Source of the DNA: an uncultured bacterium
GTDB lineage: Bacteria; Acidobacteriota; HRBIN11; JAKEFK01
NCBI GenBank assembly: GCA_963777505.1
Contig: CAVZQN010000009.1
Coordinates: 1 to 18,697 of the forward strand
Direction of reading: 5' to 3'
DNA: 18,697 bases
Below are positions 750-18,697 of the stretch, piece after piece. Every line of letters starts with the position of its first letter. Position 1 is the stretch's first letter. A program made the translations under genes and the position numbers. The notes under the pieces are model-generated. The model searched no databases. It was not told the DNA's origin and saw only the letters and a list, made by a program, of their open reading frames with translations.

Positions 750-753
750 TTTT

Positions 754-3264: not shown

Positions 3265-3314
3265 ACGATCGACTTCTATCTCCTTTCCACACTCGTTATA
3301 AGTTGCCTCTCGAT

Positions 3315-3331
3315 TTGGCATGAGCGTTGCA
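3315..3331 (+). promoter_or_regulatory. Sigma54 (RpoN) -24/-12 promoter
   Basis: TTGGCATGAGCGTTGCA has exact GG-N10-GC spacing and differs by one base from the TGGCACG-N4-TTGCW consensus. It is followed by the RBS AGGAGG (3344-3349) and an ATG at 3359. Confidence 0.75.
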
Positions 3332-3358
3332 AATGCTGACAGAAGGAGGGTCATCGCC

Positions 3359-4522
3359 ATGTTTAGAGTCGGAATTAATTCAGCTCCAAGGATCGTATCA
3401 AAGGAAATCACTGAAGCGCAGGAAGCTCCATCACAAACGACAGAACAACAAGTTGTGCCAGCGGAATCCAAATTTGTACAAAAAGGGAATTCATCGATTC
3501 GAAGTGAAGCGATGTTTTCAGCAACGGCAATCCGAGCTCAGCTCAGTCAGCAGCTTACATTAAAAGAGTCAATGAAATTGAACCCGGAGCCGCTTCAAAA
3601 TCTGGAACAATCGGATCGTTTAGCCTTAACTTCGGAACAGGTGAATCGAGAAATCAATACTCCACTCGAATACGATTCAGGCAATCGTTTCAACAAGACA
3701 ACTCTGGAGAATGCCAACGTTCCGTCGTTAAATACTCTTTATACAGGATCGGGCGATGACAATGTGTTTATTCAGCATAATAAAAGTGATGACCTCGTGT
3801 ATGTTTCAGTGAATGGGAAAGAGGCCTGGAAGGGAACGTATGAACAGTTTTCGAAATTAACCATCGATACGGGCGATGGAAAGGACTTCGTATCAATCAA
3901 TACCACTGTAGCGAACGTTGTTACTGGCAGCGGAGATGATTTTGTAATGGTTGGATCTATAAGTCGTCAGGTTGATACAGAAACCGAAATAAAAATCAAT
4001 ACGGGCAGCGGTAATGATGCAGTAGAGAATTATGTATCCTCTGCCACCATTCAAACCGGCGATGGAATCGATAGCGTATACAATTTGGGTAATAAGACCA
4101 CTATCGACACTGGTGAGGGACAAGACAGAGTTTACAACGAAGGCAACATGAATCGGATTGAAACTGGAAATGGAAACGACCAAGTTCAAAACTATGGCAG
4201 TGACAACGAGATCCGTACTGCCTCTGGAAACGACCAAGTTTATAACTATGGCAGTGACAACGAAATTCGTACTGGCTCTGGAGACGATATGGTATACAAC
4301 CAGGGGGCGATCTTAGTCCAAGATCCAGTTGAGGCAATTTGGAATTATGCGGAAGGCGGTGGGGGCGACCGCAATATAATTGACACCGGTGACGGAAACG
4401 ATGCTGTTTCTTTTAGCTTATACGCAGATGACAACCTCGTTTCGACAGGATCTGGTGATGATTTCGTTGTTGATCATGGATCACTTAATCAAGTCGATAC
4501 CGCCGTGGAAGAGGATTCATAA
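3359..4522 (+). CDS. RTX/hemolysin-type calcium-binding repeat (beta-roll) protein
   Basis: About 12 (I/V)xTGxGxDxV repeats in the C-terminal two thirds and no Sec signal peptide. I moved the start from 3320 to 3359 because of the AGGAGG RBS and because the ATG at 3320 lies inside the sigma54 box. Confidence 0.75.
   Translation: MFRVGINSAPRIVSKEITEAQEAPSQTTEQQVVPAESKFVQKGNSSIRSEAMFSATAIRAQLSQQLTLKESMKLNPEPLQNLEQSDRLALTSEQVNREINTPLEYDSGNRFNKTTLENANVPSLNTLYTGSGDDNVFIQHNKSDDLVYVSVNGKEAWKGTYEQFSKLTIDTGDGKDFVSINTTVANVVTGSGDDFVMVGSISRQVDTETEIKINTGSGNDAVENYVSSATIQTGDGIDSVYNLGNKTTIDTGEGQDRVYNEGNMNRIETGNGNDQVQNYGSDNEIRTASGNDQVYNYGSDNEIRTGSGDDMVYNQGAILVQDPVEAIWNYAEGGGGDRNIIDTGDGNDAVSFSLYADDNLVSTGSGDDFVVDHGSLNQVDTAVEEDS
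4171..4278 (+). repeat. 54-bp tandem duplication (2 x 18 aa) inside the RTX-like gene
   Basis: TGGAAACGACCAAGTT...AACTATGGCAGTGACAACGA.AT.CGTACTG.CTC starts at both 4171 and 4225, encoding GNDQVQNYGSDNEIRTAS / GNDQVYNYGSDNEIRTGS. Confidence 0.9.
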
Positions 4523-4578
4523 GAGCTTGTTTAAAATTCATCATCTCCGCGTCTTTGCGGTGATAACCGTGTAGTAAA

Positions 4579-6342
4579 ATGATGCTGATGTTTTCATCAG
4601 CATTCTGGCGAAAGTTTTACTTCTTTGCGTTGCCGCTCGCCGTCGTGCTTACGATCCGTAATGCGCTGATGGATTTCCACTGGGGGTTAGCGCCTTCGCT
4701 GCAACTGACATTCAAGTACAACGCGATTGTCTGGGGTTTGTGGCTCTTGATCGCGCCGTGCCTGATCCGCCTGTTCCCACGAATCATCGCGCTCCCGAAA
4801 CAATATCGCTGGCCGATCCTTGTATTGCTTCCGCCTGTCACAGCCCTTTTGCACGTATTGATTCATCATTATTTATACGGGAGCAGGTTCCGTTTTATCC
4901 AGATTGGCTGGGGTGACTTTTACGTGACCGTACTTCTGTTTGCCTGTTATGCAGCAAAATTGCACGAAGATCGATTGCAAGCAGAGCAGGAATCCGCAGA
5001 ACTGGAGGCGCGGATCCAGCAGGTGGAACTGGCAAATATCCGGAACCGGCTCGATCCGGAATCGATCTATCAAACGCTAAGATCGGCTGCAAAACGTATC
5101 GATAACGATCCGGAAGCAGCGGATTTGCAGCTCTCGCGCTTAGGGGAACACTTGCGTTCCTTGCTGCGCGATTCTTTGGTTTACTTGAAGGATTCCATCC
5201 CGCGAAAGGAAAAAGAGTCTCCGAAGGATTTCGTCAATACACAATTGGTACGATGGGTCGCATTGTTGTGGATACTTCTGGGAGGCGCAATGGTGCTGGC
5301 GAGTCTTCTCGATCGGTGGTTTGTGTACTCCGTTGCTGTCAATTGGAAACAAATGTTTCGACTGTGGATTAGCTGGGTTGCATGTGCTGTATGGAGTCCC
5401 GCAATTTTCTGGATCAATCGAAATTATCCACTGACTCCCTTCCGAATCCGGCATGTAGCGATCCATCTGGTTTCTTGCCTTTACTTCCAATTCACAATCG
5501 GTTCTTGTTTGAATCTGATGGCGTTTGGATTCGAAAATTTTGTGGCCAGAATGCCAAGCATCTTCTACGGCGGGCTTTTCGTGGGTTTCAAATTTGATGT
5601 TTATGTCGCCATTTTGGTCCTTGGAATCCTGGTAGAGCGGTACAAAAAAAAGGCAAACGAGCGTCTTCGTGCTGCAAAGCTTGAGAGTACTTTGTTCCAT
5701 GCAGAACTCGATGCTCTTCGGATGCAGCTTCATCCGCACTTTCTTTTTAATGCGCTGAATTCCATCATCGAACTTCTGCATGAGAATCCGGAGCGGGCAA
5801 AGTCCTTGCTGCTGCGGCTCGAACAGTTTCTGGCAATGACATTGAACGCAGGGCAGGAACAGCAGATTTCACTTCGGCGCGAACTGGATTTCGTGGAATG
5901 CTACCTGGAAATGCAGAAAGTTCGGTTCCCGAAACGTCTTTCGATTCGCGTGGACATCGATCCTACAACGTCCGATTCGCGTGTTCCGGCTTTGCTGTTG
6001 CAGCCTTTAGTGGAAAACGCAGTTCGTCATGGAGTGGCTCGCAGCATGGAAGCAGGAGAGATCCGGATTCGGACAGAATCGAAAGGCAAGGTGCTTCGAC
6101 TTTCGGTGGAAAATACTTGTCCCATGGTAGGCCGCGAATCGGAAGTCAGCAAAGGCGTCGGGCTTACAAACACTCGCAAACGGCTCGAATACCTGTATGG
6201 CACTCAATATAGTATGGCGATGCAGCGCCTCGACTCCGGAGATATGTCCGTTACGATCGATCTGCCTATTTCTCGGATCCCCGCATCTCCCTTCAAGGAC
6301 ACAACGCAGATTTTTCAGACTGCGTTGTTGCCGATTGAATAG
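4579..6342 (+). CDS. LytS/YehU-family membrane sensor histidine kinase with a duplicated N-terminal sensor/pseudo-DHp module
   Basis: LRMQLHPHFLFNALNSI H-box, ELDFVECYLEMQKVRF, LLQPLVENAVRHG N-box and GVGLTN G-box. Two blocks of transmembrane helices, each followed by a His_kinase-like helical region. Confidence 0.92.
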   Translation: MMLMFSSAFWRKFYFFALPLAVVLTIRNALMDFHWGLAPSLQLTFKYNAIVWGLWLLIAPCLIRLFPRIIALPKQYRWPILVLLPPVTALLHVLIHHYLYGSRFRFIQIGWGDFYVTVLLFACYAAKLHEDRLQAEQESAELEARIQQVELANIRNRLDPESIYQTLRSAAKRIDNDPEAADLQLSRLGEHLRSLLRDSLVYLKDSIPRKEKESPKDFVNTQLVRWVALLWILLGGAMVLASLLDRWFVYSVAVNWKQMFRLWISWVACAVWSPAIFWINRNYPLTPFRIRHVAIHLVSCLYFQFTIGSCLNLMAFGFENFVARMPSIFYGGLFVGFKFDVYVAILVLGILVERYKKKANERLRAAKLESTLFHAELDALRMQLHPHFLFNALNSIIELLHENPERAKSLLLRLEQFLAMTLNAGQEQQISLRRELDFVECYLEMQKVRFPKRLSIRVDIDPTTSDSRVPALLLQPLVENAVRHGVARSMEAGEIRIRTESKGKVLRLSVENTCPMVGRESEVSKGVGLTNTRKRLEYLYGTQYSMAMQRLDSGDMSVTIDLPISRIPASPFKDTTQIFQTALLPIE

Positions 6343-6345
6343 CTG
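6276..6345. repeat. 70-bp direct repeat, copy A (further copies at 7665-7735 and 8969-9025)
   Basis: GATCCCCGCATCTCCCTTCAAGGACACAACGCAGATTTTTCAGACTGCGTTGTTGCCGATTGAATAGCTG. It encodes the kinase C-terminus on + and a propeller-gene 3' end (..QSEKSALCP*) on -. Confidence 0.95.
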
Positions 6346-6363
6346 GACAACTCCTACGATCCA

Positions 6364-7659
6364 CTAAGGACATTCTGTGGAAAGACTGAAAGGAAAATTC
6401 GTCGAACGAATATTAAGTGTCGCGGTATGAAATTCGGCGCTTAGATTATTGAGTGGAAAATCAGACCAGGAGAAAGGAGCATTCGAATTCCTGACCGGAA
6501 TCGTTGGCAGTCCGGAGCAACTGGTGGATCCTGTAAGCGGAAGCTCTACCAGGGTTACATCTTCTAAGGTTGTGTTGAAACCAACGCAACCGGCAGAAAC
6601 AATCGATTCAGAGTCAGCAGATTTCACTGCATTGGAGAATGCAGTTGACCTTTGATTCACTTCATAGCTTCTTTTCCATTTCACGGCGCCCGTTTTTGAG
6701 ATTTTCAGGACCACACCTTTCGTCAGTGATGCGTCCGGGTCGAACGCATTACCTGATAGCATGAAACTCTCGTCATCCAGAACAAACCCTGGACGAAGGC
6801 TCAAAGTATGTCCGGATATGCCGAAACTTTTCGTCCATAGCCTGCGATCCTGATCGTCAAAGCGAGCAATGAAGGTCTTGCCCGCTGCGGCTTGTTGGAG
6901 TGGGGCAAGGTAACCGAGAATGTAGCCTCCCGGACCGGGAAGATAAAACAAGCCTAACGAGTCGGCCGTCTCCGCAACACGTGACCATAAAACGTTTCCA
7001 GTTCTATCCAATCGAATCCAGAGCGCACGCATTTCGCTCTGGACTTCCGTGCTCGTTGGAATCACAAAGGAATGATCATTCAGGATTGCAATTTCTTCCC
7101 CCACGTGTTCCAGACCATTTGTTCCGATCACTTTTCGCCACAGCAGTGCACCTGCCCGCGAGAATCTCGCCACAAACAGATCCACATCAGTCGTCGAAGA
7201 AAAACGGTGCCCTGCTGCAATGATGCTGCCATCATTCAAGACTCTGACCATTCGAAATTCATCATCTTCGGGCGTTCCGAGAGTTTTTTTCCACACCAAA
7301 CGCCCTGTCCCGCTGAATTTTGCAATCCATCCATCGGTTCCGTTGGATGGAGTAACTATGCTTCCAACAACAGCGAAGCCATTATCACTTGTCACAGCCA
7401 CTGACCAGGGTATGAGAGCTCCATCGGCCGTGATCTTTTTCGTTGTCAGTATTGTTCCATCAGCGTTTAAAAGCATGAAAATGAGACTGCCCGAACTGTC
7501 GCGGATGGCGAGACCAACTTTTCCAGAACCATTCGTTCCGACTTCACCGGCGCACTGACGGCCGTCAGCGATGAAAGATGTAATCTGATCGGCATTGGCT
7601 AGAGTATGTGCAATCAAAAAGAATACAAATAACAATGTCAGAAAGTTCGTTCTAAACAT
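6364..7659 (-). CDS. Secreted beta-propeller-like repeat protein, paralogue 1 (divergent)
   Basis: Signal-peptide-like MFRTNFLTLLFVFFLIAHTLANA and ~50-aa repeats of the type GxLxWKKxLGT..D. It ends in CP like the other two paralogues. The ATG at 7659 is preferred to 7692, which overlaps the upstream gene. Confidence 0.75.
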   Translation of the reverse strand: MFRTNFLTLLFVFFLIAHTLANADQITSFIADGRQCAGEVGTNGSGKVGLAIRDSSGSLIFMLLNADGTILTTKKITADGALIPWSVAVTSDNGFAVVGSIVTPSNGTDGWIAKFSGTGRLVWKKTLGTPEDDEFRMVRVLNDGSIIAAGHRFSSTTDVDLFVARFSRAGALLWRKVIGTNGLEHVGEEIAILNDHSFVIPTSTEVQSEMRALWIRLDRTGNVLWSRVAETADSLGLFYLPGPGGYILGYLAPLQQAAAGKTFIARFDDQDRRLWTKSFGISGHTLSLRPGFVLDDESFMLSGNAFDPDASLTKGVVLKISKTGAVKWKRSYEVNQRSTAFSNAVKSADSESIVSAGCVGFNTTLEDVTLVELPLTGSTSCSGLPTIPVRNSNAPFSWSDFPLNNLSAEFHTATLNIRSTNFPFSLSTECP

Positions 7660-7664
7660 AGACT

Positions 7665-7735
7665 GATCCCCCGCATCCTCCTTCAAGGACACAACGCAGA
7701 TTTTTCAGACTGCATTGTTGCCGATTGAATAGCTG
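7665..7735. repeat. 70-bp direct repeat, copy B
   Basis: Near-identical to 6276-6345 and contains the stop codon of paralogue 2. Confidence 0.95.
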
Positions 7736-8953
7736 CTGTTTGATTGCGGAATGCTGCCGGAAGCACAGCGATCGAAAAATTTCTGAGCGTCATGGATGCT
7801 CCCGCTACAGAAATCGGTGCAGAAGTCATGCGGCTGCATCCTCCAGTATTGCCGGAAAGCGGAAGGTTCAAGGTCACCATGTCGCTTGCCTGCGTGTTCC
7901 ACCCGACGCATCCAGCAGCAAAAATGCTCCCATCGGTTTGCGGGACTGCGCCACTGATAGTGGATTGCGCAAGGTTTAGAGATCGCTTCCACTGCACTCC
8001 GCCGGTGCCGGAAATCTTCATCAGCACTCCTTTCAATGTCGATTGTGTAGATGCATTGCCCACCAGCACCAAACTTCCATCCGCATTTACGAAACCGTGA
8101 CTGAGAAACATCGAAGATCCAGAATGCGAATAAGACTTCGCCCACACCAATCGATCCGTTGCATCAAAACGGCTGATGTTTGTTTTTTCAAGTTGTCCTT
8201 GCTACATGCGGTCCCAGGCTTCCGAGATAGTACCCGCCGTTCGGATTCTCCATGTAAAAAACTCCGGCGAATTCCTTCGTGGATCCAACGCGCGCGCTCA
8301 GGACAGTGCCGCTCAAACTCAGCTTGATCCACAACGGTAAAAACGGGGACGATTCCTGTTCCAGCAGAAACCATCAACGCGGGTCCATTCGCGGAGGTGA
8401 TGGAGCTGCCGTGATCGAGGGAGGGAGTTCCAAGAACTTTTCTCCACAACAATGCGCCTCCCTTGGACAACCGTGCAATCAACAGGTCATACGAAGTAGA
8501 AGCGGAAATGCGATGTCCCAGCACCGCAATCGAGCCATCCTGCAATACAGTTACACCATGCAGTTCATCATTTTCGGCGGTGCCAAAAATCTTTTTCCAA
8601 ACGATGTTGCCGGCGGAACTCACCTTGAACACGATTGCATCCCTATCTCCGGAAGGCAGTGCAATTGCCCCCACAACAATAAATCCACCATCCGAAGTCG
8701 AGGCGATGTCCGAAGGGCTTATTGTTCCGCTGGAACTGAATCTCCTGTTGAATCTCAAACTCAGATCGGGATTGAAGAGCAACAGTCCCGCCACATTTTG
8801 ATCAATTACAAGTGTCGCGATCCTGCCATTGGCATCGATGGAAACATCCGCAGGACATTGGGATCCGGGCAGAACAAACTGGCTCAGCACATCTGCTGCT
8901 ACCGTATAGGAAACAAGTGTCAGTATGCATGCAAGAAATACGTAACGCGTCAT
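7683..8953 (-). CDS. Secreted beta-propeller-like repeat protein, paralogue 2 (two +1 frameshifts: sequencing error or recent pseudogene)
   Basis: ORFs 8087-8971 and 7683-8150 are collinear with paralogue 3 after removing one base in the A-run 8339-8343 and one near 8199. 1271 nt minus 2 = 423 codons. RBS GGAGGT precedes MTRYVF. Confidence 0.8.
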
Positions 8954-8977
8954 AAGTACACCTCCGTTCATCTCCCT

Positions 8978-10252
8978 TCAAGGACATAACGCAGATTTTT
9001 CAGACTGCGTTGTTGCCGATTGAATGGCCGTTGTTTGTGTATGGAATGTTGCTGGGAGCGCAGCGATCGAAAAATTACTGATCGACAATGATGCTCCCGC
9101 CACAGAAATCGGCGCAGAAGTCATGCTGCTGCATCCTCCAGTATTGCCAGAAAGCGGAAGGCTCAAGGCTACGACATCGCTTAAATCGTTCGCGCCGCTG
9201 CATCCGGCAGCAAAAATATTTCCATTTGTTTGCCGCACTGCGCCGGTGAAGTAGGAATGCGCAACATTCAGCAGACGTTTCCACTGAACTCCCCCGGAAC
9301 TGGAAATCTTCATCACCACTCCTCTAAATATCGATGGCGTTGATGGTGTAGATGAATTGCCCACCAGTACCATGCTTCCATCCGCATTTACAAAACCGTA
9401 CGGTGTAGTCAGCATATTTCCTGGAAACCCATAAGATTTTGCCCAAACCAGCCGATCCGTCGCATCGAAACGGCTGATGTTTGTTTTTTGGAGTTCTCCA
9501 TGCACCAGCGGTCCTGCGCTTCCGAGGTAGTACCCGCCATTCGGATTCTCCTTGTAAAAAATTCCGATTGATTCCCGTGTGGATCCAACGCGCGCGCTCA
9601 GCACAGCACCGCTCAAACTCAATTTGATCCATAACGGTGAAATCGGCGTGTCTCCTGTTCCAGCAGAGACCATTATTGCGGGTCCGTTTGCGGAGGTAAT
9701 GGATCCAGCATGATCGATGGAGGGAGTTCCAAGAACCTTTTTCCACAACAATGCGCCCCCCTTGGAAAGACGTGCAATCAAGAGGTCTAACGAATTAGAA
9801 GCGGTTATGCGATGTCCCAGCACTGCAATCGAGCCATCCTGCAATACAGTCACGTAGTGCAGCTGATCAATATCGGGGGTGCCAAAAACCTTTTTCCAAA
9901 GGATGTTGCCGGTGGCACCCAACTTGAACACGATCGCATCTGTATCTCCGGAGGGTAATGAAATGGTCCCCGCCACAACATATCCACCATCCGGAGTTGG
10001 GGTGACGCCTGAAGAGTCTAACGTTCCGCTGGAACTAAATCTCCTGTTGAATTTCAAAGTCAGATCGGGATTGAAGAGCAACACTCCGGCTGCATTTTGA
10101 TCAATTAAGGACGTTGCGATCCTGCCATTTGCGTCGATGGATACTCCAGTAGCGCATTGGATGCCTGGCAGAACAAACTGACTCAGCACATCTGCTGTCG
10201 CGGTAAAGGAAACCAGTGTCAGGATGCATGCAAGGAATGCGTAACGCGTCAT
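8978..10252 (-). CDS. Secreted beta-propeller-like repeat protein, paralogue 3
   Basis: Intact 424-aa ORF with the signal peptide MTRYAFLACILTLVSFTATA, WKKxFGT-type blade repeats, a C-terminal CP and a GGAGGT RBS. Confidence 0.8.
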   Translation of the reverse strand: MTRYAFLACILTLVSFTATADVLSQFVLPGIQCATGVSIDANGRIATSLIDQNAAGVLLFNPDLTLKFNRRFSSSGTLDSSGVTPTPDGGYVVAGTISLPSGDTDAIVFKLGATGNILWKKVFGTPDIDQLHYVTVLQDGSIAVLGHRITASNSLDLLIARLSKGGALLWKKVLGTPSIDHAGSITSANGPAIMVSAGTGDTPISPLWIKLSLSGAVLSARVGSTRESIGIFYKENPNGGYYLGSAGPLVHGELQKTNISRFDATDRLVWAKSYGFPGNMLTTPYGFVNADGSMVLVGNSSTPSTPSIFRGVVMKISSSGGVQWKRLLNVAHSYFTGAVRQTNGNIFAAGCSGANDLSDVVALSLPLSGNTGGCSSMTSAPISVAGASLSISNFSIAALPATFHTQTTAIQSATTQSEKSALCP

Positions 10253-10383: not shown

Positions 10384-11103
10384 CTAAAGCGCATGTCCCA
10401 GCAAATGTTGAAGGCGCTCCTTATAACGCCGGCTCAGGATGAGCTGAGTTTCATCGTTCAGAACCACGCGATAGTCACCATGAAACAACGGCTGCAGTTT
10501 CTGAATGCGGTCAATGTTCACCGCATAGGAGCGATGAATCCGAACAAACTTCGATGGATCGAGCCGGGCAAGAAGTCCCGTGATTCCCTCACGCGACAGC
10601 AGTTGTTTCGACTTCACGTGAGTGATAGCAGAATGCCCGTTCGCTTCGATCCAATCGATATCATTCACGTTGATCAGGATGAGTTCTTCGCCGCTTCTCA
10701 TTGCAAGACGATTGGCGTAAATCGGGCTTCGTGAATCTGTTTCCAGGTGATGCAAAAGACGTTGCATCGCTTCGTCGAATCGGGGGCGGCTGAACGGCTT
10801 CAGCAGATAATCCACCGCCTGCACATCAAACGCTTGCACCGCATAGTGCTCGAATGCCGTGATGAAGATGATGTAAGGACGCTTCTCGCGAGGGATTCGT
10901 TGAAGCAGCTCAAATCCATTCAACCCTGGCATTTCCACATCCAGGAATAGGACGTCTGGATTGTCTTCCGAAATAGACCGCAAGGCTACGTTCGCATCAT
11001 CGAGGATTTCCACACGGCTCGCAATCGGATAAGACTTGAGGAACCTCTTCACTCGATTGCAGCTGAGCGGCTCGTCATCCACAATCAACACTTTGAGATT
11101 CAT
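10384..11103 (-). CDS. LytTR/AlgR-family DNA-binding response regulator
   Basis: REC domain (VLIVDDE, FLDVEMP, FITAF, DYLLKP) plus LytTR domain (IDWIEA, FVRIHRS, LSRRY). Confidence 0.95.
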   Translation of the reverse strand: MNLKVLIVDDEPLSCNRVKRFLKSYPIASRVEILDDANVALRSISEDNPDVLFLDVEMPGLNGFELLQRIPREKRPYIIFITAFEHYAVQAFDVQAVDYLLKPFSRPRFDEAMQRLLHHLETDSRSPIYANRLAMRSGEELILINVNDIDWIEANGHSAITHVKSKQLLSREGITGLLARLDPSKFVRIHRSYAVNIDRIQKLQPLFHGDYRVVLNDETQLILSRRYKERLQHLLGHAL

Positions 11104-11114
11104 ACCACAATCAT

Positions 11115-11234
11115 ATTTGAGATTTCAGATGTAAGATTGCAGATTGTAATTGAAGCATTTTAGATTGATAGACGCTCTATCAATCTTCCAATCGTAACAT
11201 TTCAATCTGAAATCAGTAATCTGATATCTAAAAT
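11115..11234. repeat. ~120-bp imperfect palindrome built from 7-mer repeats
   Basis: The left arm has GATTTCA/GATGTAA/GATTGCA units and the right arm the complementary TCTGAAA/TCAGTAA/TCTGATA units. Perfect core AGATTGATAGA-cgc-TCTATCAATCT at 11162-11186. Confidence 0.8.
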
Positions 11235-11238
11235 GGAA

Positions 11239-11261
11239 TGGCGGAGAGGGTGGGATTCGAA
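11239..11261 (-). mobile_element. tRNA-Ser 3'-end fragment, att site (island boundary)
   Basis: The minus strand reads TTCGAATCCCACCCTCTCCGCCA: T-loop, 3' T-stem, Ser-type acceptor strand, G73 discriminator and CCA. There is no anticodon or D arm upstream, so it is not an intact tRNA. Confidence 0.85.
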
Positions 11262-11385
11262 AACACAAAAAGCCGCTAAACCCTCACAACCGCAAGAGAT
11301 AGTATACAAAAGACTTATTTATTTCGGTTCAATTTCTTTCTGTTTCTTTTTGTATGTTTTCAGCCCGGTTTGCGGAACTTCTTCA

Positions 11386-11405
11386 TGGCACAAATCTGGC
11401 ACAAA
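11386..11405. repeat. Tandem TGGCACAAA repeat, candidate tyrosine-integrase arm-type sites
   Basis: TGGCACAAA at 11386 and 11397 (11-bp period), ~125 bp inside the att fragment, beyond an AT-rich tract. Confidence 0.6.
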
Positions 11406-11787
11406 AGTCTTTTGAGAAACGATAAAAAAGAAACAGATGTGACTTCTACACGGTCAAAGTTTTCGGAAACTTGCGGCGGAACGTGCGCATAACTCTTATG
11501 TGCGAGATTTCTGCTTTCAGGAATTTGATCGTTACCCGGTTACTTTCGCGCTGAAGCGATCGCGGCAATTCAAAACAAAGTCGGAGCCTTTCTTGAACAA
11601 TTAAAAGCTAAACCGTAGTAAAACGTCGATCTCTGTTTTTTGTCTTGTTCGTTCGCACCACAAGACCCTTTGAAATTTGTTGTTACATTGATTCAAAGAA
11701 CCCATTGAACACTCCTGATTAATTCTTCATATATTTAGATAGACAAGATATTGTTCCCCATTCACATAACAGATTGGAAGGGAAATA

Positions 11788-13054
11788 TTGGAGAAATCGG
11801 CAGGAAAAGAAACTCCACTGGTAAAAATTTTTGGCAGAGTTGGCTCATCGGTTGGTTATGCTATTCGTGATTTCCTTCATCGTAGTGATATTCCTTTCGA
11901 ATGGGTTCAACTGACCAGCGATGATCAAGCGCGAAAGGACGTGGGAGTTGATCATCTGCATGATTTCGCGGCTACCTGTTTGCGTTTTTCCGGATGGTAC
12001 TCGAATGGAGTGCCCAACGATTCAACAGATTACTCAAAAGCTTGGCTGGTTCAACACACCATCACGCAACGAATATGACCTTGCTATATATGGTGCAGGA
12101 CCCGCTGGTTTAAGTGCTGCTGTTTATGGTTCTTCTGATGGACTTAAAACAGTTTTGGTCGAACGATGGGCCGTAGGAGGACAAGCTGCGAGCAGCGCGA
12201 GCATCGAAAATTATCTGGGATTTCCTGGAGGAATCAGTGGAGCGGAATTGGCAGAAAGAGCACGCAACCAAGCTTGCCATTTTGGAACAGAAATCCTTTT
12301 AGGCCGTGAAGGAGTTCGCGCCGAATTCTTGCCTGGAAAAGGTGTGGGTCATCTAGCGGATGGCACGAAGATTGTTGCGCGTGCATCTATTTGTGCAACG
12401 GGCATGGAATACCGTCGTCTTGGTTTGCCGAATGAGGACCGGTTTCTTGGCGCGGGTTTGTATTATGGCGCAGGTGCCAGTGAAGCAGTTCTAACCAAAA
12501 ACCAACGTGTGTTTATTGTTGGTGGTGGCAATTCTGCCGGTCAAGCTGCAATGCACTTTTCCGCTTTTGCGAGTCAGGTAACATTGGTAGTTCGCGCCGA
12601 ATCTTTGAAAAGTACATTATCCCATTATCTTGTGGAGCGTATCTACGCTGCTTCCAATGTGGAAGTGCTGACGCGACATGAAGTAGTCGCATTGGAGGGT
12701 GATCAAATCTTGCAAGTGATTACTCTTCGTAACCTTGAGACTCGTCAGGAACGTAAGGCCAAAACTCAATGGTTGTTTGTATGTATTGGGGGAGTGCCGC
12801 AAACCCAATGGGCTACAGAGGTAGGCATTGTTCGTGATGAGAGTGGATACATTGTTACCGGGCCTGATCTGATTCTTGAAGGACGACTGCGAGAGAATTG
12901 GCCTTTGGACCGTAGTCCATATTATCTGGAAACAAACATACCGGGTGTGTTTGCTGCCGGCGATGTCCGCCATGGGTCAGTAAAACGCTTTGCCGCTGCA
13001 GTGGGCGAGGGTGCAATGGCAGTGGCCTTCGTAAATCGATATCTTGGGAACTAG
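11788..13054 (+). CDS. Thioredoxin reductase-like (TrxB-family) FAD/NAD(P)H oxidoreductase with an N-terminal glutaredoxin-like domain; one +1 frameshift near 11965
   Basis: GAGPAGLSAA, IENYLGFP, VGGGNSAG and TNIPGVFAAGDV motifs. ORF 11788 (..IRDFLHRSDIPFEWV..) joins ORF 11921 on removal of one T (HLHD-SRLPVCVFPDG). Confidence 0.85.
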
Positions 13055-13323
13055 AATTTGATATCAAGAAAATCAATATTCAACAATGCCAAATCCGATA
13101 AGAGGCATATTATTTACGATATCTGACGCTTCACTGAACTCCGAAGTTCTCTTCAGATTTAGAAAGTTCCGCCCTTTTTGAGTCAGGGGCGAAACGAAAC
13201 TGGTAGAAATCTTCGCTTCGGAGGCCAACCACCTTCGGGCCAAATATTGCTACTTCATTCGTATCTCCGTTTGATGGAAACGAACGAAGTAAACCGACTT
13301 AACATAACAGGAAAGGAATTCAT

Positions 13324-13809
13324 ATGGCAAGACGCTGGATTCCAACAGACTGGTCGGCACTTACATTTTATCAACGCATTGAAAGCTTAATCGCGTTGTT
13401 GCTAACTTTCATTACTACACTTGTCATTCTTGTTGCTTTGTACCGTTTGATTTTGGAAGTTGTCGGAGGGCTCGTTTTCGGCGCTTTAAATCCACTGGAG
13501 CACTCCAATTTCCAAACTGTGTTTGGTGAAATCATGACAGTACTGATTGCGTTAGAGTTTAACCACACTCTTCGATATGTTGTAACTCGCGAGCAAAGCG
13601 TTATTCAAACGAAAGTTGTCTTGCTAATCGCTCTCCTGGCATTGGCTCGCAAATTTATCATCTTGGATCTAAAAGAGATGACCTCTAACGAACTATTTGG
13701 ATTGGCGGCTGTTACATTGGCGCTTGGAATCACTTGTTGGTTATTGCCGGGGTCTGAAAATCATTCTCCTTTTATTAAGGAGACAAAATCCAAAGCAGGT
13801 GAAGGATAA
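13324..13809 (+). CDS. psiE: Phosphate-starvation-inducible PsiE-family membrane protein (PsiE-GI-like)
   Basis: Four hydrophobic helices with NPLEH..FQTVFGEIMTVLIALEF.H and IALLALARKFIILD motifs. Confidence 0.85.
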   Translation: MARRWIPTDWSALTFYQRIESLIALLLTFITTLVILVALYRLILEVVGGLVFGALNPLEHSNFQTVFGEIMTVLIALEFNHTLRYVVTREQSVIQTKVVLLIALLALARKFIILDLKEMTSNELFGLAAVTLALGITCWLLPGSENHSPFIKETKSKAGEG

Positions 13810-13849
13810 AGTGAATACCAAGCCTAATCTTGAAAAAATGAGGTGAAAC

Positions 13850-16600
13850 ATGGCTGAAAACCTATGTGATATTTGCAATAAACGACCTGCCGTTGCTACG
13901 GTGAGAGTAAGACGAAACGGCCGGGAAGAAAGGCTGAATGTCTGCCAATACGATTTGCAGCGACTTGAAAGTCAGCAAGAATTTTCCTCCCCATTTTCTT
14001 CATTCTTTAGCGGTGAAGATCCATTCGAGAGGTTCTTCGGCAAAGACTTTCCATCGTTTTCTTCCGACATGGGATATCCGATCCCTCGTCACCGTGAAGC
14101 GGTGGATATCAGTCAATACTTTTCCGATCAAACGAAAGAGTTGATTCAACAGTCAGGCGAGAAGGCCGTTGAATTAAGGCGTAATGAAGTTGATACGGAG
14201 CATCTCTTATTTGCTCTTGCTGATAGCGATGTCGTTCAGGAAATTTTCAAGCAATTCAAGATTAAGCCTCAAGATGTGAAGGAATACATTGATGCTAACG
14301 CACCTAAAGGACCAGAAGACAAGAAAGAAAAAGCCGGTCAGATTGAGCTTAGTATTTCTCCACGCCTTAAGAACGTTTTTGAATTTGCATTCGGCGCATC
14401 CCGTGAACTTGGCCACGGTTATGTTGGTCCTGAACATTTGTTAATCGGATTAACGCAAGAAGAAGGATTGGCCGGAGAGTTGCTTCGAAAATATGGGTTA
14501 ACGCCTGAGAGCCTACGCCAACAAACCGTAAAAGTCGTAGGCCGTGGCGCTGAAGAAGGCAGAGTAGATTCAAAATCGACTACTCCACTACTCGATAAAT
14601 ATTCACGTGATCTCACCAAGCTCGCAAAAGAAAGCAAACTCGATCCCGTGATCGGTAGATACGATGAAATAGAAACCACGATCGAAATCCTTTCGAGACG
14701 GACAAAGAATAATCCCGTACTGATCGGTGAGCCCGGCGTTGGTAAAACGGCAATCGTGGAAGGTCTGGCACAGAGAATTATTAATGAAGACGTGCCAGAG
14801 GTTTTGCTAAATAAGCGCGTCGTGGAATTGAACACAAATTCAATGATAGCCGGTACCAAATATCGAGGTGAGTTTGAAGAGCGGATTAAAAATGTACTGG
14901 ATGAAGTTACTCAACACAAAGAGGAATTGATTCTTTTTGTTGATGAAGTGCACACCATTGTCGGCGCAGGAAGTTCAGAAGGCGGTCTCGATGTTGCGAA
15001 TGTAATGAAGCCTCATCTGGCGCGCGGCGATCTGCATTTGATTGGTGCAACAACTCTCAATGAGTACCAGAAACACATAGAAAAGGATTCCGCATTAGAA
15101 AGGCGATTCCAACCTGTGTTTGTTCCGGAACCCACTGTCGAACAAACGATTGAAATACTTCGAGGCTTGCGTGATAAGTACGAAGCACATCACAAAGTGA
15201 AGATTACAGACGAAGCGATTGTTTCTGCGGCTAGTCTTTCCGATCGATATATTGCAAATCGGTTCCTGCCCGATAAAGCAATTGATTTGATCGATCAAGC
15301 AGCTTCACGCGTAAGAATTTTATCAACGCGAGTCCCGCGCGAGATTCGTGTAACCGACGAAAAAATTGGAAAGCTCAAACGCGAACAGGAATTTGCATCA
15401 TCACGAAAACAATTTGATAAAGCAAAAGAACTGGATAAGGAGATTAACTCATTAACAAAAGAACGCGAACAACTTCAAGAAAAAATGAAATTGCAAATTG
15501 GTGTGACTACTCCTGAGGTGAAAAAGGAACACATTGCAGAAATCCTTTCCAAACTCACAGGCATACCAGTAGCCGAGCTGACGGAAGAAGAAAAACAAAA
15601 ACTTCTAAAAATGGAAGAAAGGCTTCACGAACGAGTCGTTGGACAGGAACAAGCAATTGCATCGATTTCTGACGCAATTCGTAGATCTCGTGCCGGCCTT
15701 ACGGAAAGGAATCGGCCGATAGCGAGCTTTATGTTTCTTGGTCCAACAGGAGTTGGAAAAACAGAACTGGCAAAGTCGATTGCCTGGTTTGTATTTGGAG
15801 ATGAGGATGCGCTGGTACGCATTGATATGTCGGAATACATGGAACGGCATAGCGTTTCCAGACTTATCGGAGCGCCGCCTGGATATGTTGGTTATGAAGA
15901 GGCCGGACAACTGACTGAAGCGGTGCGTCGCCGTCCCTACCGCGTCATACTGCTGGACGAAATCGAAAAAGCACACCCGGACGTCTATAACGTTCTTCTG
16001 CAACTATTCGATGATGGCAGATTAACAGATGGAAAGGGAAGAGTTGTGAATTTTACCAACACTATCATTATCGCAACCAGCAATATCGGTTCCGATATCA
16101 TTCAGGAGAATCTACGCAGAACGGAGATGAATCGGAAGAGCTATCAGGACCTGAAGAACGAATTAATGAGGGTCTTGAGATCTCATTTCAGGCCCGAGTT
16201 CTTGAATCGAATCGACGAGATCATTGTGTTCCATGCATTGTCTCAAGCGCAAGTGAAAGACATCACGAAATTGCAGTTGGAAAGAGTAAAGCGAACTGCG
16301 AGAGGTCAGGGAGTGGAACTGATATTTGACGATTCCCTGATCGATTACCTGAGTGATGTTGGCTATCTTCCTGAATTTGGAGCGCGTGAGTTGCGGCGTC
16401 GAATTCAAACCGACGTCGAAACTGTTCTTGCAAGAGCGATGTTGAAAGAAGATATCAAGGAGGGTGATCACGTCAAATTAAGTTATCGCGATGGAGAAGT
16501 AAAAATAGAAAAATTAACAGATCGCGAGAAAAAGCCGAAGAATGAACGTGAAGAATTTGCAACTCGCGGAAGTGACCTAGGAAGAGCGAAAGATCGATAG
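13850..16600 (+). CDS. clpG: ClpG/ClpK-type AAA+ disaggregase (Hsp100, class I Clp ATPase)
   Basis: Two Walker A motifs ([16 protein letters not shown]), a Clp N domain and an extra N1 segment with CDIC..C. The short M domain [15 protein letters not shown] recalls ClpG. No IGF/LGF ClpP-docking loop follows TSNIGS. Confidence 0.85.
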
Positions 16601-16634
16601 TTCCTCACTGCAGTAAAAGTGTGATGAGGTAAAC

Positions 16635-17387
16635 ATGATTCCGATCCGCGATACGATACCGAGCCGTAATCCTTCGATAATGATGGTTGCGCTGATCATG
16701 GTGAACAGTGTCATCTTTGCTCTGGAATTAATGCTGCCTGAACACCAACTGGATGCACTCATTCATATGTTCGGGCTCATTCCGGCTCGGTACACGCATC
16801 CTGAATGGGCGATGATGCTCGGTTTCCCGGTTGATGATTACTGGCCATTTTTTACCAGTATGTTTTTGCACGGCGGTTGGCTCCATATCATCGGAAACAT
16901 GTGGACCCTCTGGATTTTCGGAGACAACGTGGAGGACCGGATGGGGCCTTTGCGCTTTTTGATTTTTTACCTGCTGTGTGGACTTGCGGGTGGAATTGCT
17001 CATTGGTTCACCAATGCCAATTCCGCCATTCCTACGATCGGAGCATCGGGTGCAATCGCAGGCGTTTTGGGAGCTTATTTCGTTTTATTTCCCAAGGCCC
17101 GCATTATTGCGATGATACCGATCCTGTTTTTTCCATTTTTCTTTGAAATTTCCGCTTTCGTTTATCTTGGCATTTGGATGGTAACTCAGATCTTTAGCGG
17201 GACTATAGCATTGACGCAGCAAGAAGCGGCAGGCGGAATTGCATTTTGGGGTCATATTGGCGGCTTTATGGCGGGACTTCTCTTGCATCCTTTATTTATA
17301 AGACGCGAAAGAAGTATGCGGCCAGATGAATGGGAATTGGAAGGAGCCTGGCATCCTTTTAAGAAACGTGAACGATGGAGTTGGTAA
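16635..17387 (+). CDS. Rhomboid-family intramembrane serine protease
   Basis: MIPIRD start, SMFLHGGWLHIIGNM, GDNVEDRMG, catalytic GASG and GHIGG motifs. Confidence 0.95.
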   Translation: MIPIRDTIPSRNPSIMMVALIMVNSVIFALELMLPEHQLDALIHMFGLIPARYTHPEWAMMLGFPVDDYWPFFTSMFLHGGWLHIIGNMWTLWIFGDNVEDRMGPLRFLIFYLLCGLAGGIAHWFTNANSAIPTIGASGAIAGVLGAYFVLFPKARIIAMIPILFFPFFFEISAFVYLGIWMVTQIFSGTIALTQQEAAGGIAFWGHIGGFMAGLLLHPLFIRRERSMRPDEWELEGAWHPFKKRERWSW

Positions 17388-18223
17388 CGATGAATTTCAA
17401 TGATCTTATATGGCTCTTTTTTATGTTTTCCGCTCTTCAACCTGCGCTCACCAAAAGAATGATGGAAATTTCTCGACAACGGATGATCGCTCAAATAGAA
17501 CGTAAGCGAGGCTCGCGCGTCATTCTCATGGTTCATCGCCAGGAAACTATGAGTCTTTTCGGGTTTCCTGTTTTTCGATACATAGATATTGATGATTCCG
17601 AAGCAGTAATCAGGGCTATCCATATGACTGATCCGGATATTCCTCTTGATCTTGTTTTGCACACACCAGGCGGTCTTGTTCTTGCTTCACTGCAAATTGC
17701 ACGGGCAATTCACAAGCACAAGGGTAAGGTCACGGTATTTGTACCGCACTATGCGATGTCAGGCGGAACGTTGATCGCATTAGCTGCAACTGAGATCGTA
17801 ATGTCCGAACATGCTGTGCTAGGTCCGGTAGACCCACAGCTTGGACAATTTCCTGCAGCTTCTCTAATTAAGGTGGTAACTCAAAAGCCAATCGCAGAAA
17901 TTGATGACGAAACTCTGGTGCTTGCAGATCAGGGTGAAAAGGCAATTAAGCAAGTTCAAGAAAGTGTTTGGGAATTGTTGACTGGTAAGATTCCCGATCT
18001 GCAAGCAAAGAATTTGGCCGAATTACTTTCTCAGGGAACCTGGACTCATGATTATCCGATTACTTTTGATAAGGCTACGGAACTGGGTCTACCAGTGAGT
18101 TCAAAAATCCCAGATGAAATTCTGAAGTTAATGAGTTTGTATCCTCAACCTATGCGAACAAAACAACCTACTGTGGAATACCTTCCGGAACCACGGACCC
18201 GGAAGCAAGCCACCCAACCATAA
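17375..18223 (+). CDS. SDH-family ClpP-fold serine protease (membrane-anchored)
   Basis: LHTPGG, AMSGGT (Ser), LGPVDPQ (Asp) and WTHDYPI (His), with an N-terminal hydrophobic segment. An alternative start lies at 17390. Confidence 0.9.
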   Translation: MELVTMNFNDLIWLFFMFSALQPALTKRMMEISRQRMIAQIERKRGSRVILMVHRQETMSLFGFPVFRYIDIDDSEAVIRAIHMTDPDIPLDLVLHTPGGLVLASLQIARAIHKHKGKVTVFVPHYAMSGGTLIALAATEIVMSEHAVLGPVDPQLGQFPAASLIKVVTQKPIAEIDDETLVLADQGEKAIKQVQESVWELLTGKIPDLQAKNLAELLSQGTWTHDYPITFDKATELGLPVSSKIPDEILKLMSLYPQPMRTKQPTVEYLPEPRTRKQATQP

Positions 18224-18227
18224 TAGG

Positions 18228-18524
18228 ATGAAACACCAAATTACATTGAAAAATCTCGAGCAACCACAACAGCTCTAATAGCTGCTGCCACGATTCCTGT
18301 CAAAACTTGATAAGCTGTTACCAGGCTTTTCTGCGGATCAAGCTTTTTTTTGCATGGAACGCTGGAAAAACACACAACCCGATCCCTTTATCGCGTCTCG
18401 CTTATTTTGAATCTGTTTGGGACCAAGCTTGTCAAACATGAAGTACGGTCAGACTTGAAACTGGCAATTCGCGAAGCATTTCTTGAACTGGAACGCCCAG
18501 CTCAAGAAGTACAAAGCCTTGGTG
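18228..18524 (+). pseudogene. HPF/RaiA-like ribosome-associated protein pseudogene, truncated
   Basis: Reconstruction: MKHQITLKNLEQPQQL**LLPRFLSKLDKLLPGFSADQAF/LHGTLEKHTTRSLYRVSLILNLFGTKLVKHEVRSDLKLAIREAFLELER/QLKKYKALV. In-frame stops at 18276-18281 and two frameshifts. DLxxAIxEAFxxLERQLxKYK is HPF-like. Confidence 0.6.
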
Positions 18525-18697
18525 GCTCGAATGCTGTGATGAAGATGATGTAAGGGCGCTTCTCGCGAGGGATTCGTTGGAGCAGCTCAAATCCATTCAA
18601 CCCTGGCATTTCCACATCCAGGAATAGGACGTCTGGATTGTCTTCCGAAATAGACCGCAAGGCTACGTTCGCATCATCGAGGATTTCCACACGGCTC
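18525..18697 (-). pseudogene. Truncated duplicate of the LytTR regulator REC region (copy of 10848-11020), running off the window end
   Basis: 173 bp aligned without gaps with 3 mismatches. The frame diverges after FITAFE and ends at 18502. Confidence 0.9.

Follow-up and report, generated by a model that had tools for sequence, protein, structure and literature searches.

The question raised by this locus is whether the six genes grouped around a large Clp ATPase make up a protein-quality-control unit, and how such a unit relates to the known heat-tolerance islands of the tLST type. Our analysis of the window, which is the whole stretch of 18,697 nucleotides, leads us to regard the region as probably a compact ClpG-centred protein-quality-control cluster, an explanation that takes in PsiE, the protease pair, the flavoprotein and the hpf-like remnant. 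It amounts to a lean and hitherto undescribed form of the known islands, not a wholly new system. The features on which the argument draws are the following:

10384-11103, minus strand: LytTR response-regulator gene, intact (Response_reg and LytTR domains)
10848..11020: left copy of a direct repeat, within the response-regulator gene
11104..11787: non-coding spacer, 684 nt, separating the response-regulator start from the trxR-like gene
11788..13054, plus strand: TrxR-like FAD/NAD(P) flavoprotein gene (Pyr_redox_2, E 1.2e-34)
13324..13809, plus strand: PsiE-family membrane protein, island (PsiE-GI) type (PF06146, E 3.5e-30)
13850..16600, plus strand: ClpG-family AAA+ disaggregase, 916 aa (assigned by NF033607, tree, N1 residues and lack of a [VLF]GF loop)
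16635..17387, plus strand: rhomboid intramembrane serine protease, 250 aa (PF01694, E 3.6e-39)
17375..18223, plus strand: SDH-type ClpP-fold serine protease, 282 aa (PF01972, E 1.8e-114; NF047768, 417.4 bits for a cut-off of 250)
18350..18524, plus strand: S30AE-related (HPF-like) gene remnant, with a frame shift and truncation at the repeat junction
18525..18697: second (right) copy of the repeat; fragment from the 5' part of the same LytTR response-regulator gene, differing at 3 positions and extending to the contig end

The sequence-only reading had described six co-oriented genes, tightly spaced from psiE through hpf. Indeed, all six open reading frames lie on the plus strand in that order, and the spacing from psiE to the SDH gene does not exceed 40 nt (40 nt between psiE and clpG, 34 nt between clpG and the rhomboid gene, and a 13-nt overlap of the latter with the SDH gene), whereas 126 nt separate the SDH gene from the hpf-like one and two of the six genes are damaged, the trxR-like gene being frame-shifted and the hpf-like gene both frame-shifted and truncated. 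A further gap of 269 nt lies between the trxR-like gene and psiE. Upstream, the spacer contains a 60-aa open reading frame with no Pfam match, no tRNA and no Rfam match, and its promoter-like sites are not commoner than in shuffled sequence.

The identity of the Clp ATPase is the point on which the assignment of the whole cluster turns. Its best NCBIfam model is that of ClpG (NF033607; 1272.9 bits over residues 1-879, the ClpB model scoring 1007.9), and it is 64% identical to Pseudomonas ClpG, 61% to that of Caballeronia, 59% to the ClpG of alphaproteobacterial plasmids and 57.6% to ClpK. In a tree of 47 rows the protein falls within an 18-row environmental clade (SH-aLRT 94), whose sister group comprises the 7 proteobacterial ClpG/ClpK rows (98), and the 13 ClpC-type rows and the ClpB rows fall apart from both. 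The cluster of ClpG proteins at 90% identity or above to which it belongs includes a member named from an Acidobacteriota MAG, and an Acidobacteriota host is probable. The domain order, comprising an N1 zinc-finger extension, N2 (Clp_N), AAA1, a short M-domain of ClpC/ClpG length, AAA2 and a short C-terminal tail, is that of the autonomous disaggregase ClpG of Pseudomonas aeruginosa, with Walker A motifs at 293 and 631 and Walker B motifs at 361 and 699. Taking the N1 residues as defined in PMC10641755, both proteins keep the three cysteines (C6, C9 and C32) and a V17-equivalent valine, and both are devoid of the ClpP loop; the window protein differs in having, according to the alignment, Asp at the position of zinc ligand H34 and Arg at that of L21, as well as in its separate environmental clade. 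Judged by family, it is therefore, as had been proposed, a true ClpG-type disaggregase and not a ClpC or ClpB. The ClpP-loop tripeptide ([VLF]GF) was not found in any of the nine ClpG-type rows compared and was found in all five ClpC rows. Because this loop is missing from the window ClpG, the proposed coupling of disaggregation to proteolysis is unlikely to proceed by docking onto a ClpP-fold protease.

The adjacent membrane protein has three hydrophobic segments and was likewise correctly recognized as PsiE of the island type, since it shares 49-50% of its residues with Klebsiella PsiE-GI and 40-45% with alphaproteobacterial island PsiE, and E. coli K-12 PsiE gives no blastp match to it at E≤10.

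Two proteases are encoded downstream of clpG. In the rhomboid, S138 (within GASGA) and H207 are invariant across 42 aligned sequences, and identity to plasmid-island rhomboids is 43-48%. The SDH protease, 64-68% identical to its plasmid homologues, begins with a hydrophobic helix, and as a basic stretch comes after this helix the catalytic domain is predicted to be cytoplasmic. Its AlphaFold model (pLDDT 78.8) has as best PDB fold matches ClpP, the 1510-N stomatin protease and SppA. The fold is thus shared with the membrane-bound ClpP-fold proteases NfeD/1510-N and SppA (PDB 6m4b, 3viv, 3bpp, 4kwb), to which 2deo adds a weak sequence match, but the protein belongs to another family (PF01972), for which no solved structure was found in the PDB copy searched, and no stomatin gene lies near it. 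From their 13-nt overlap, the rhomboid and SDH genes are predicted to be translationally coupled. The arrangement recalls Bacillus subtilis YqgP, a rhomboid paired in membrane-protein quality control with FtsH, a second, processive membrane-bound protease (PMC7231995); in the window, however, the partner is an ATP-independent ClpP-fold serine protease and the pairing is genetic, in the form of overlapping genes.

The two outermost genes are less well preserved. The flavoprotein gene, which has a small glutaredoxin-like N-terminal part, carries a one-base frame shift near 11963-11968 that divides it into ORFs 11788-12078 and 11921-13054; in all five homologous loci (L095-L099) a single continuous frame covers what are here the N-terminal ORF (residues 11-59) and the main ORF (from residue 16). 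With TIGR01292 the protein scores 224.6 bits (cut-off 343.45). It had been taken for a TrxB-like redox partner, a role not supported in view of the frame shift and of the lack of a CxxC, as the residues aligned with the CATC redox motif of E. coli TrxB are GAGA. As for the putative hibernation factor, ORF 18350-18553 gives nothing significant against Pfam and NCBIfam (the sole Pfam row at E≤10 is DUF3829_2nd, E 0.18). Nevertheless, an exhaustive search of 1.84 billion representatives yields four relatives, and all four match PF02482 (S30AE/HPF family) above its cut-off, although only over the C-terminal half of the model. The closest of them, P0378, is intact with 128 aa. In the window copy, a frame shift near 18494-18497 and the break at 18524 leave about 58 of the 128 codons, and a second frame carries the homology (QLKKYKAL) on to 18521. 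What had been read as an added hibernation factor is consequently a truncated gene of a family with half an S30AE domain.

The gene set is found again elsewhere. Of 11 alphaproteobacterial plasmid loci that hold an SDH homologue, 10 also have ClpG, PsiE and the rhomboid, the rhomboid and SDH genes overlapping by 10 nt in eight annotated loci, and in three of five plasmid loci with a TrxR-like homologue, all three from Paraburkholderia, ClpG and PsiE lie within 4 kb. Homologues of the first five genes, all but the hpf-like one, are therefore clustered with ClpG on plasmids of Alpha- and Betaproteobacteria. Beyond plasmids, synteny rests only on contigs matching in size: relatives of ClpG, rhomboid and SDH protease occur on contigs of equal size (20171, 19647, 37032 and 141981), and the 19,647-bp contig of P0378 has the size of that carrying near-identical ClpG, SDH protease and rhomboid. 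Among 11 other long SDH-match contigs (at least 20 kb), one equals the size of a listed ClpG match, considering the best 120 of about 8000 matches for each protein. In a control of 80 Clp loci from genomes, none has an SDH homologue and one has a rhomboid homologue nearby; the linkage of rhomboid and SDH protease to Clp exceeds this one background, which comprises 79 ClpC/ClpB-type loci and differs from the alphaproteobacterial plasmid loci in taxon and replicon type. None of the cluster partners is found near the Pseudomonas core ClpG (L001) or the Caballeronia ClpG (L084).

Comparison with the known islands places the cluster more precisely. Like the canonical tLST of Klebsiella, it joins a ClpG/ClpK-type cytoplasmic disaggregase and a PsiE-GI-type protein, that is, a disaggregase with envelope or membrane proteins. 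With 26 tLST-type island proteins as queries, though, only PsiE, ClpG, rhomboid and SDH protease are matched in the window, and sHsp20, FtsH, YfdX, HdeD, Trx, KefB, HtpX and DegP are not found. The window is also without flanking mobile genes, its rhomboid, SDH protease, TrxR-like and HPF-like genes do not belong to the canonical locus, and its cluster has 45% GC against 61% in Klebsiella, while PMC8290217 gives tLST a GC content of about 61% and a DNA conservation above 80%. Our literature search found no paper that mentions a rhomboid in tLST. The alphaproteobacterial plasmid islands (Paracoccus yeei, Agrobacterium, Ciceribacter, Shinella, Brucella anthropi, Sinorhizobium fredii and Roseomonas; L081-L089, L100-L103) share ClpG, PsiE and the overlapping protease pair, but are much larger, IS-flanked and of 62% GC, carry three sHsp20, MarR, FtsH, a sigma factor, HdeD, an NDUFS4-like protein, TrxC and a KefB-like antiporter, and have PsiE divergent and about 4 kb upstream of clpG instead of adjacent to it. 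FtsH is present alongside the pair in 10 of 11 such loci, and in two of them HtpX and a DegP-like protease are annotated as well; the pair is thus an additional module and not, as had been suggested, a replacement for the usual proteases. The Paraburkholderia plasmid cluster (L095, L096, L099) shares the TrxR-like protein (70-71%; intact, with 404-411 aa in L095 and L096, the two loci with annotation), PsiE (42-47%) and ClpG (56-63%), but adds Hsp20, HdeD and a UBP-type zinc-finger gene, differs in gene orientations and lacks both rhomboid and SDH protease.

In the quality-control cluster that we favour, the N1 domain of ClpG would bind aggregates induced by heat or oxidants and ClpG would thread the aggregated proteins out without Hsp70 or ClpP, while the rhomboid would cleave damaged membrane proteins inside the bilayer and the membrane-attached SDH protease would degrade the pieces released, PsiE and the flavoprotein being putative accessory membrane and redox components. 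The most serious alternative, to which we give perhaps one chance in a few, is that rhomboid and SDH protease form a self-contained, widespread membrane-protease operon with a task of its own, for instance the processing of particular membrane proteins, and merely hitch-hike beside ClpG in a few lineages, with no functional link to disaggregation. Both proteases do have thousands of relatives at 60-75% identity (at least 8000 candidates per search); a Thermus plasmid SDH protease lacks rhomboid, ClpG and PsiE in the one record inspected of six, one MAG has a 47%-identical rhomboid adjoining a true ClpB with no SDH protease, and the absent docking loop of ClpG points the same way. Against this, the pair accompanies ClpG and PsiE in settings as remote from each other as the probable Acidobacteriota contigs and 10 of 11 alphaproteobacterial plasmid loci, and as protein identity between the two is only 43-68%, recent co-transfer of one block does not account for it.

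A decaying remnant, namely a duplicated or transferred fragment that gains frame shifts and no longer works as a unit, is a distinctly unlikely explanation. Two of six genes are disrupted and the hpf-like gene is cut off at the junction, as decay would have it; yet ClpG, PsiE, rhomboid and SDH protease are full-length with intact catalytic motifs, and copies 93-99% identical are present on other contigs. Moreover, a third gene of the window is split at 7683-8971, and all three frame shifts sit at short homopolymer runs, as expected of sequencing errors, so that homopolymer errors may stand in the place of decay.

The junction itself bears on mobility. The direct repeat (10848-11020 and 18525-18697) spans at least 173 nt and reaches the last base of the window; identity begins abruptly at 18525, the final 117 nt are identical to 10904-11020, and the hpf-like gene, intact on the sister contig, is cut exactly at this boundary. 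No integrase or transposase domain was detected by Pfam in the 19 larger ORFs of the window, those between the repeat copies included, and for this reason the proposed att site is unproven. A rearrangement junction is the best reading of the repeat, since duplication or an assembly join fits better than an att site: a 7,677-bp unit with one end within the response-regulator gene and the other within the hpf-like gene could have been duplicated in tandem, or the repeat could instead be an assembly join. Least probable of all is the sequence-only reading as a whole, a mobile island in an att site with rhomboid and SDH protease in place of the tLST proteases, a TrxB-like protein in place of thioredoxin and a hibernation factor as an extra. 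In its favour, the repeat flanks the genes on both sides, ClpG proteins about 67% identical are named from phyla far apart, consistent with horizontal spread, and the relatives in proteobacteria are plasmid-borne, with IS elements on either side. It is opposed by the missing recombinase, the truncation of the cluster's own hpf-like gene by the right repeat edge, the coexistence of the protease pair with FtsH and other proteases, the flavoprotein without CxxC and the half-domain of the HPF-like product. In base composition, the cluster (45.2% GC) departs only modestly from its flanks (49-50%).

[quoted passage not shown] The cluster under study is a new, minimal variant of such ClpG-centred stress islands, in which six co-oriented ORFs lie on the + strand between 11788 and 18553. 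Their co-orientation had been described in a sequence-only reading, whose observation was largely right and whose family calls were mostly right; Pfam/NCBIfam profile searches give clear family matches for five of the six ORFs:

11921-13054, + strand, Pyr_redox_2 flavoprotein (E 1.2e-34), similar to thioredoxin reductase (TrxR-like)
13324-13809, + strand, PsiE (PF06146, E 3.5e-30)
13850-16600, + strand, Clp ATPase of 916 aa (best NCBIfam model NF033607, ClpG)
16635-17387, + strand, rhomboid (PF01694, E 3.6e-39)
17375-18223, + strand, SDH-type ClpP-fold protease (PF01972, E 1.8e-114; NF047768, 417.4 bits against a cut-off of 250)
18350-18553, + strand, HPF-like ORF with no significant family match of its own

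From 5' to 3' the genes are separated by 269, 40 and 34 nt, a 13-nt overlap and 126 nt, so that the tight spacing described for psiE through hpf holds from psiE through the SDH protease gene and does not extend to all six genes. A sigma-32-like promoter pattern had no match, sigma-70-like and terminator-like sites are no more frequent than in shuffled sequence, and neither tRNA genes nor Rfam families were found.

The assignment of the Clp ATPase to the ClpG family is borne out by profile, phylogenetic and motif analyses. The ClpG model NF033607 scores highest (1272.9 bits, residues 1-879), followed by ClpK (1192.6) and ClpB (1007.9), the ClpG and ClpK scores being below the strict cut-off of 1900 that NCBIfam sets for these two models. 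Identities of the protein are 64% with a Pseudomonas ClpG, 61% with a ClpG from a Caballeronia plasmid, about 59% with ClpGs from alphaproteobacterial plasmids and 57.6% with ClpK of Klebsiella. In a maximum-likelihood tree of 47 rows with SH-aLRT support, a long stem divides the ClpG-type rows from 13 ClpC-type rows and ClpB, and the window protein groups with ClpG/ClpK and not with the housekeeping ClpC or ClpB. It falls inside a 25-row ClpG-type clade (support 85, or 93 at the node including the deltaproteobacterial row L045, a wrong-frame extraction with a branch length of 10 whose real gene is a ClpB and whose position was disregarded), where its 18-row environmental subclade (94) is sister to seven proteobacterial ClpG/ClpK rows (98). 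The protein has two AAA+ modules, with Walker A motifs at 293 and 631 and Walker B motifs at 361 and 699, and the alignment gives it an M-region of ClpC/ClpG length, which falls short of that of the two ClpB rows by about 58 columns. The ClpP-docking loop is marked by the tripeptide [VLF]GF, which is present in all five ClpC rows and absent from the nine ClpG-type rows, the two ClpB rows and the window protein; two AAA+ modules, a short M-domain of ClpC length and the lack of a docking loop are thus found together.

The alignment further reveals an N-terminal CxxC...C extension common to the window protein and ClpG/ClpK. For this zinc-finger extension (N1), a zinc site formed by C6, C9, C31 and H34 has been reported from NMR and mutagenesis, together with two hydrophobic residues of the first strand that bind aggregates, V17 and L21, the latter position being occupied by Gln in some ClpG proteins (PMC10641755). 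In the window protein C6, C9 and C32 are kept and Asp35 aligns with H34, an Asp also seen in the Caballeronia ClpG row and four environmental rows, while the ClpK and P. yeei rows keep the His; aligned by eye, V18 corresponds to V17 and Arg22 stands at the L21 position. Among the matches listed, ClpG relatives with 66-68% identity carry the names of candidate-phyla-radiation bacteria (Parcubacteria, Microgenomates, Saccharibacteria) and of Bathyarchaeota, which suggests a wide horizontal spread of this ClpG clade and hints at transfer of the disaggregase between domains. One member of the ClpG protein cluster at 90% identity or more is named from an Acidobacteriota MAG. As a separate observation, the MAG locus L002 carries two tandem Clp genes (626-6020); the first begins with a zinc finger resembling that of ClpE/McsA, and the tree nevertheless places it in the ClpC-type clade and not with ClpG.

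PsiE is likewise of the island type (PsiE-GI), as had been proposed, being 49-50% identical to Klebsiella PsiE-GI and 40-42% identical to PsiE of alphaproteobacterial islands; E. coli K-12 PsiE gives no blastp match to it at E≤10. The resemblance to known islands nevertheless covers only part of the gene set. Out of 26 proteins from Ciceribacter, Paracoccus, Klebsiella and Paraburkholderia islands used as queries, only PsiE, ClpG, the rhomboid and the SDH protease match the window at E≤1e-3, and sHsp20, FtsH, YfdX, HdeD, Trx, KefB, HtpX and DegP from this set have no match there. The tLST core, sHsp20-ClpG with the envelope module YfdX, HdeD, Trx, KefB, HtpX and DegP, is therefore not present as such. 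Islands of this type have been described mainly from Beta- and Gammaproteobacteria, with a GC content near 61%, DNA conserved to more than 80% and flanking mobile elements, and ClpG subgroups occur in various genetic contexts, some Alphaproteobacteria having the protein-homeostasis part (PMC8290217). In GC content, conservation and mobile elements the window departs from this description: the cluster has 45.2% GC (flanks 49-50%, proteobacterial islands 61-62%), protein identities are 40-67%, and the 19 larger ORFs encode no transposase or integrase domain. Because only four of the 26 island proteins match and the GC content is this low, the cluster is a distant, minimal relative of tLST, not a copy of it.

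The rhomboid matches PF01694 over positions 3-142 of 143 and retains the catalytic pair, S138 (within GASGA) and H207 being invariant in 42 sequences. In the SDH protease, S129 and the candidate His and Asp partners H96/H125 and D92/D153 do not vary among 41 sequences, and the predicted structure (pLDDT 78.8) has a fold like that of ClpP, 1510-N and SppA behind a long N-terminal helix. This helix starts with a hydrophobic stretch, after which basic residues follow, a pattern suggestive of a membrane anchor that carries a cytoplasmic catalytic domain.

Searching a plasmid collection with the SDH protease matched 40 records, of which 17 reached a coverage of at least 80% (11 alphaproteobacterial and 6 Thermus). 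Rhomboid, ClpG and PsiE homologues share an island with the SDH gene in ten of the 11 alphaproteobacterial plasmid loci (L081, L082, L085, L086, L087, L089 and L100-L103), so that these four genes are found together elsewhere as well; in the eleventh, L088, only SDH-TrxC-KefB is left between IS copies. Some of the ten are themselves modified: in L103 the SDH gene is split in two and an IS truncates the rhomboid gene, in L089 clpG is interrupted. The latter locus, on an unannotated record of pNGR234b of Sinorhizobium fredii NGR234 (14249-21275), has clpG directly downstream of the rhomboid-SDH pair, with an insert of about 2.6 kb. The typical order is PsiE-(YfdX)-3x sHsp20 / MarR-FtsH-ClpG-sigma-HdeD-hyp-NDUFS4-like-rhomboid-SDH-TrxC-KefB, with HtpX and a DegP-like protease in addition in L087 and L100, and eight annotated plasmid loci show a 10-nt overlap between the rhomboid gene and the SDH gene. 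The proposal that the pair replaces the usual proteases does not hold, because the pair coexists with FtsH, and in those two loci with HtpX and the DegP-like protease; the pair is an added module of a tLST-like island. In the one Thermus locus inspected of the six, the SDH gene stands alone. We also noted, just upstream of the rhomboid gene, a gene annotated as NADH dehydrogenase Fe-S protein 4 or as an ETC complex I subunit in L081-L087 and L100-L103, and a gene annotated as sigma factor after clpG in seven of the ten alphaproteobacterial loci, the other three having a short or unnamed ORF or none. Neither the NDUFS4-like gene nor the sigma factor is known to belong to the canonical tLST gene list.

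A genome scan with the ClpG query provides a background for this association. Its patterns included a motif common to all Clp ATPases, and the 80 loci retrieved were of ClpC/ClpB type in 79 cases; in three the match began at the N-terminus, and of these one (L001) stayed a ClpG in the tree. The flanks of these 80 Clp loci contain no SDH protease, no PsiE, one rhomboid and one TrxR-like homologue. Indirect evidence of co-location comes from metagenome contigs, since among the matches listed relatives of ClpG, rhomboid and SDH protease share contig sizes of 20171, 19647, 37032 and 141981 bp, the last with identities to the window of 81% (ClpG), 68% (rhomboid) and 74% (SDH). Contigs of 953, 1105 and 3279 bp were rejected, being too short for both proteins. 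A rhomboid relative with 62% identity is named from Candidatus Acidoferrum among the matches listed. A second kind of rhomboid-disaggregase adjacency is found in the deltaproteobacterial MAG locus L045 (9299-12622), where a 47%-identical rhomboid precedes, by 42 nt, a gene for a true ClpB (TIGR03346, 1396.8 bits, above cut-off) and no SDH protease is present.

As to function, the Pseudomonas ClpG proteins are autonomous disaggregases (PMC10641755), and by analogy the window ClpG may disaggregate on its own; direct docking of ClpG onto the SDH protease is unlikely, judging from the sequence, because ClpG has no ClpP-docking loop. The rhomboid YqgP works with FtsH (PMC7231995), and on this model the rhomboid would first clip damaged membrane proteins and the SDH protease would then degrade the resulting fragments. 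We put forward tentatively, as a rather doubtful proposal, that the overlapping rhomboid and SDH genes constitute a two-step membrane-protein disposal device, recruited repeatedly, in such distant phyla as Acidobacteriota and Alphaproteobacteria, to form a membrane arm for extreme-stress islands based on ClpG. Were this true, it would give the PF01972 family a first physiological role and a bacterial rhomboid a role in stress survival, and the tLST concept would reach well past Proteobacteria in a minimal ClpG-PsiE-protease form. The window shows a ClpG-PsiE cluster reduced to few genes, in a genome that is probably from Acidobacteriota, and it led to a rhomboid-SDH pair inside alphaproteobacterial tLST-like plasmid islands. 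Were this pair a membrane-protein quality-control arm of such islands, a bacterial rhomboid and an uncharacterised protease family would each gain a function open to testing, and mobile stress tolerance would extend to more genes and more hosts than are known for it.

This recurrent module appears to be undescribed and is the most interesting by-product of the analysis. The word rhomboid was not found in the literature on tLST, ClpK and TLPQC in a search of article text; it has no occurrence in the tLST review PMC8290217 or the 2025 survey PMC12603250, whose supplementary variant tables may list the alphaproteobacterial form. In full texts, ClpG together with rhomboid retrieves only an unrelated human Skd3 study, and rhomboid with locus of heat resistance solely a reference title; for PF01972, or serine dehydrogenase proteinase, the passages retrieved are passing mentions.

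The flavoprotein had been taken as a TrxB-like redox partner, a role which its sequence does not support: it scores 224.6 with the thioredoxin reductase model TIGR01292 (cut-off 343.45), and it has GAGA at the position of the CATC redox motif in E. coli TrxB, leaving no redox-active CxxC. On these two grounds it is a flavoprotein of TrxR fold and not a thioredoxin reductase. Comparison with homologues identifies the ORF 11788-12078 as the true N-terminus of this gene: in all five homologous loci, residues 11-59 of this ORF are continuous in frame with residue 16 onward of the main ORF. The window gene has therefore been shifted by one base at a short run of T near 11963-11968. Intact homologues with 70-71% identity occur on three Paraburkholderia plasmids, each at most 4 kb from PsiE (42-47%) and ClpG (56-63%), with HdeD beside them and, where annotated (L095), Hsp20. 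The more distant homologues of Gloeocapsa and Cupriavidus have no PsiE or ClpG neighbours, so that the association with PsiE and ClpG stands at three of five plasmid loci inspected, one further match (68.5%) lying outside those five.

The sixth gene does belong to the cluster, and yet the hibernation factor seen in it has to be abandoned. The ORF (67 aa) has no significant Pfam/NCBIfam match of its own (best row E 0.18), and an exhaustive search of 1.84 billion representatives returned four relatives. PF02482 (S30AE) is above cut-off in all four, in three of them with the C-terminal half of the model only, and in the closest relative, P0378 (128 aa), the match is limited to model positions 41-85 of 88. 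P0378 lies on a 19,647-bp contig, and a contig of that size also carries relatives of ClpG (97%), of the SDH protease (99%) and of the rhomboid (from the cluster at 90% or more). In the window a second frame carries the homology on (QLKKYKAL) to 18521, and homology ends at 18524; the frame changes at a run of C near 18494-18497, and what is left of the gene is a frame-shifted remnant of 58 of 128 codons. Given the incomplete S30AE domain, even the intact form is not a canonical hibernation factor.

The point at which this gene is cut off is exactly where a direct repeat begins. The copies (10848-11020 and 18525-18697) align over 173 nt with three mismatches, the last 117 nt being identical; the left copy lies within an intact LytTR response-regulator gene (10384-11103, minus strand), and the right copy is a 5' fragment of that same gene and reaches the contig end, so that the repeat is at least 173 nt long. 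Because of this exact coincidence, the simplest reading is a novel junction joining the interior of the HPF-like gene to that of the regulator gene, which could mean that a 7,677-bp unit was duplicated in tandem or amplified, or that the assembly made a join there. The suggested att site, as the end of an integrative element, finds a repeat in its favour and fits poorly, as the Pfam scan of the 19 larger window ORFs reveals no recombinase, integrase or transposase domain and the right edge cuts a cluster gene.

The window is a complete contig of 18,697 bp, and its remainder shows some further features. Three tandem paralogues of a beta-propeller gene (PQQ_2/NHL-like; 6279-10252, minus strand), in units of about 1,295-1,390 nt with 75-86% mutual identity, are each followed by a 67-nt hairpin-bearing repeat (6279-6345, 7669-7735 and 8964-9030), and the middle copy is broken by a frame shift into ORFs 7683-8150 and 8087-8971. 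All three frame shifts of the window (11963-11968, 18494-18497 and about 8090-8150) are located at short homopolymer runs, a position to be expected of errors in sequencing or assembly and equally compatible with real decay. The region 1500-3000 is GC-rich (57-58%, against 41-50% around it), contains an epoxide hydrolase gene (1694-2899, minus strand) and may be foreign DNA. Finally, a 400-aa ORF (3320-4522) with a weak match to a calcium-binding repeat family includes two tandem 54-nt copies that are 91% identical (4171-4278).
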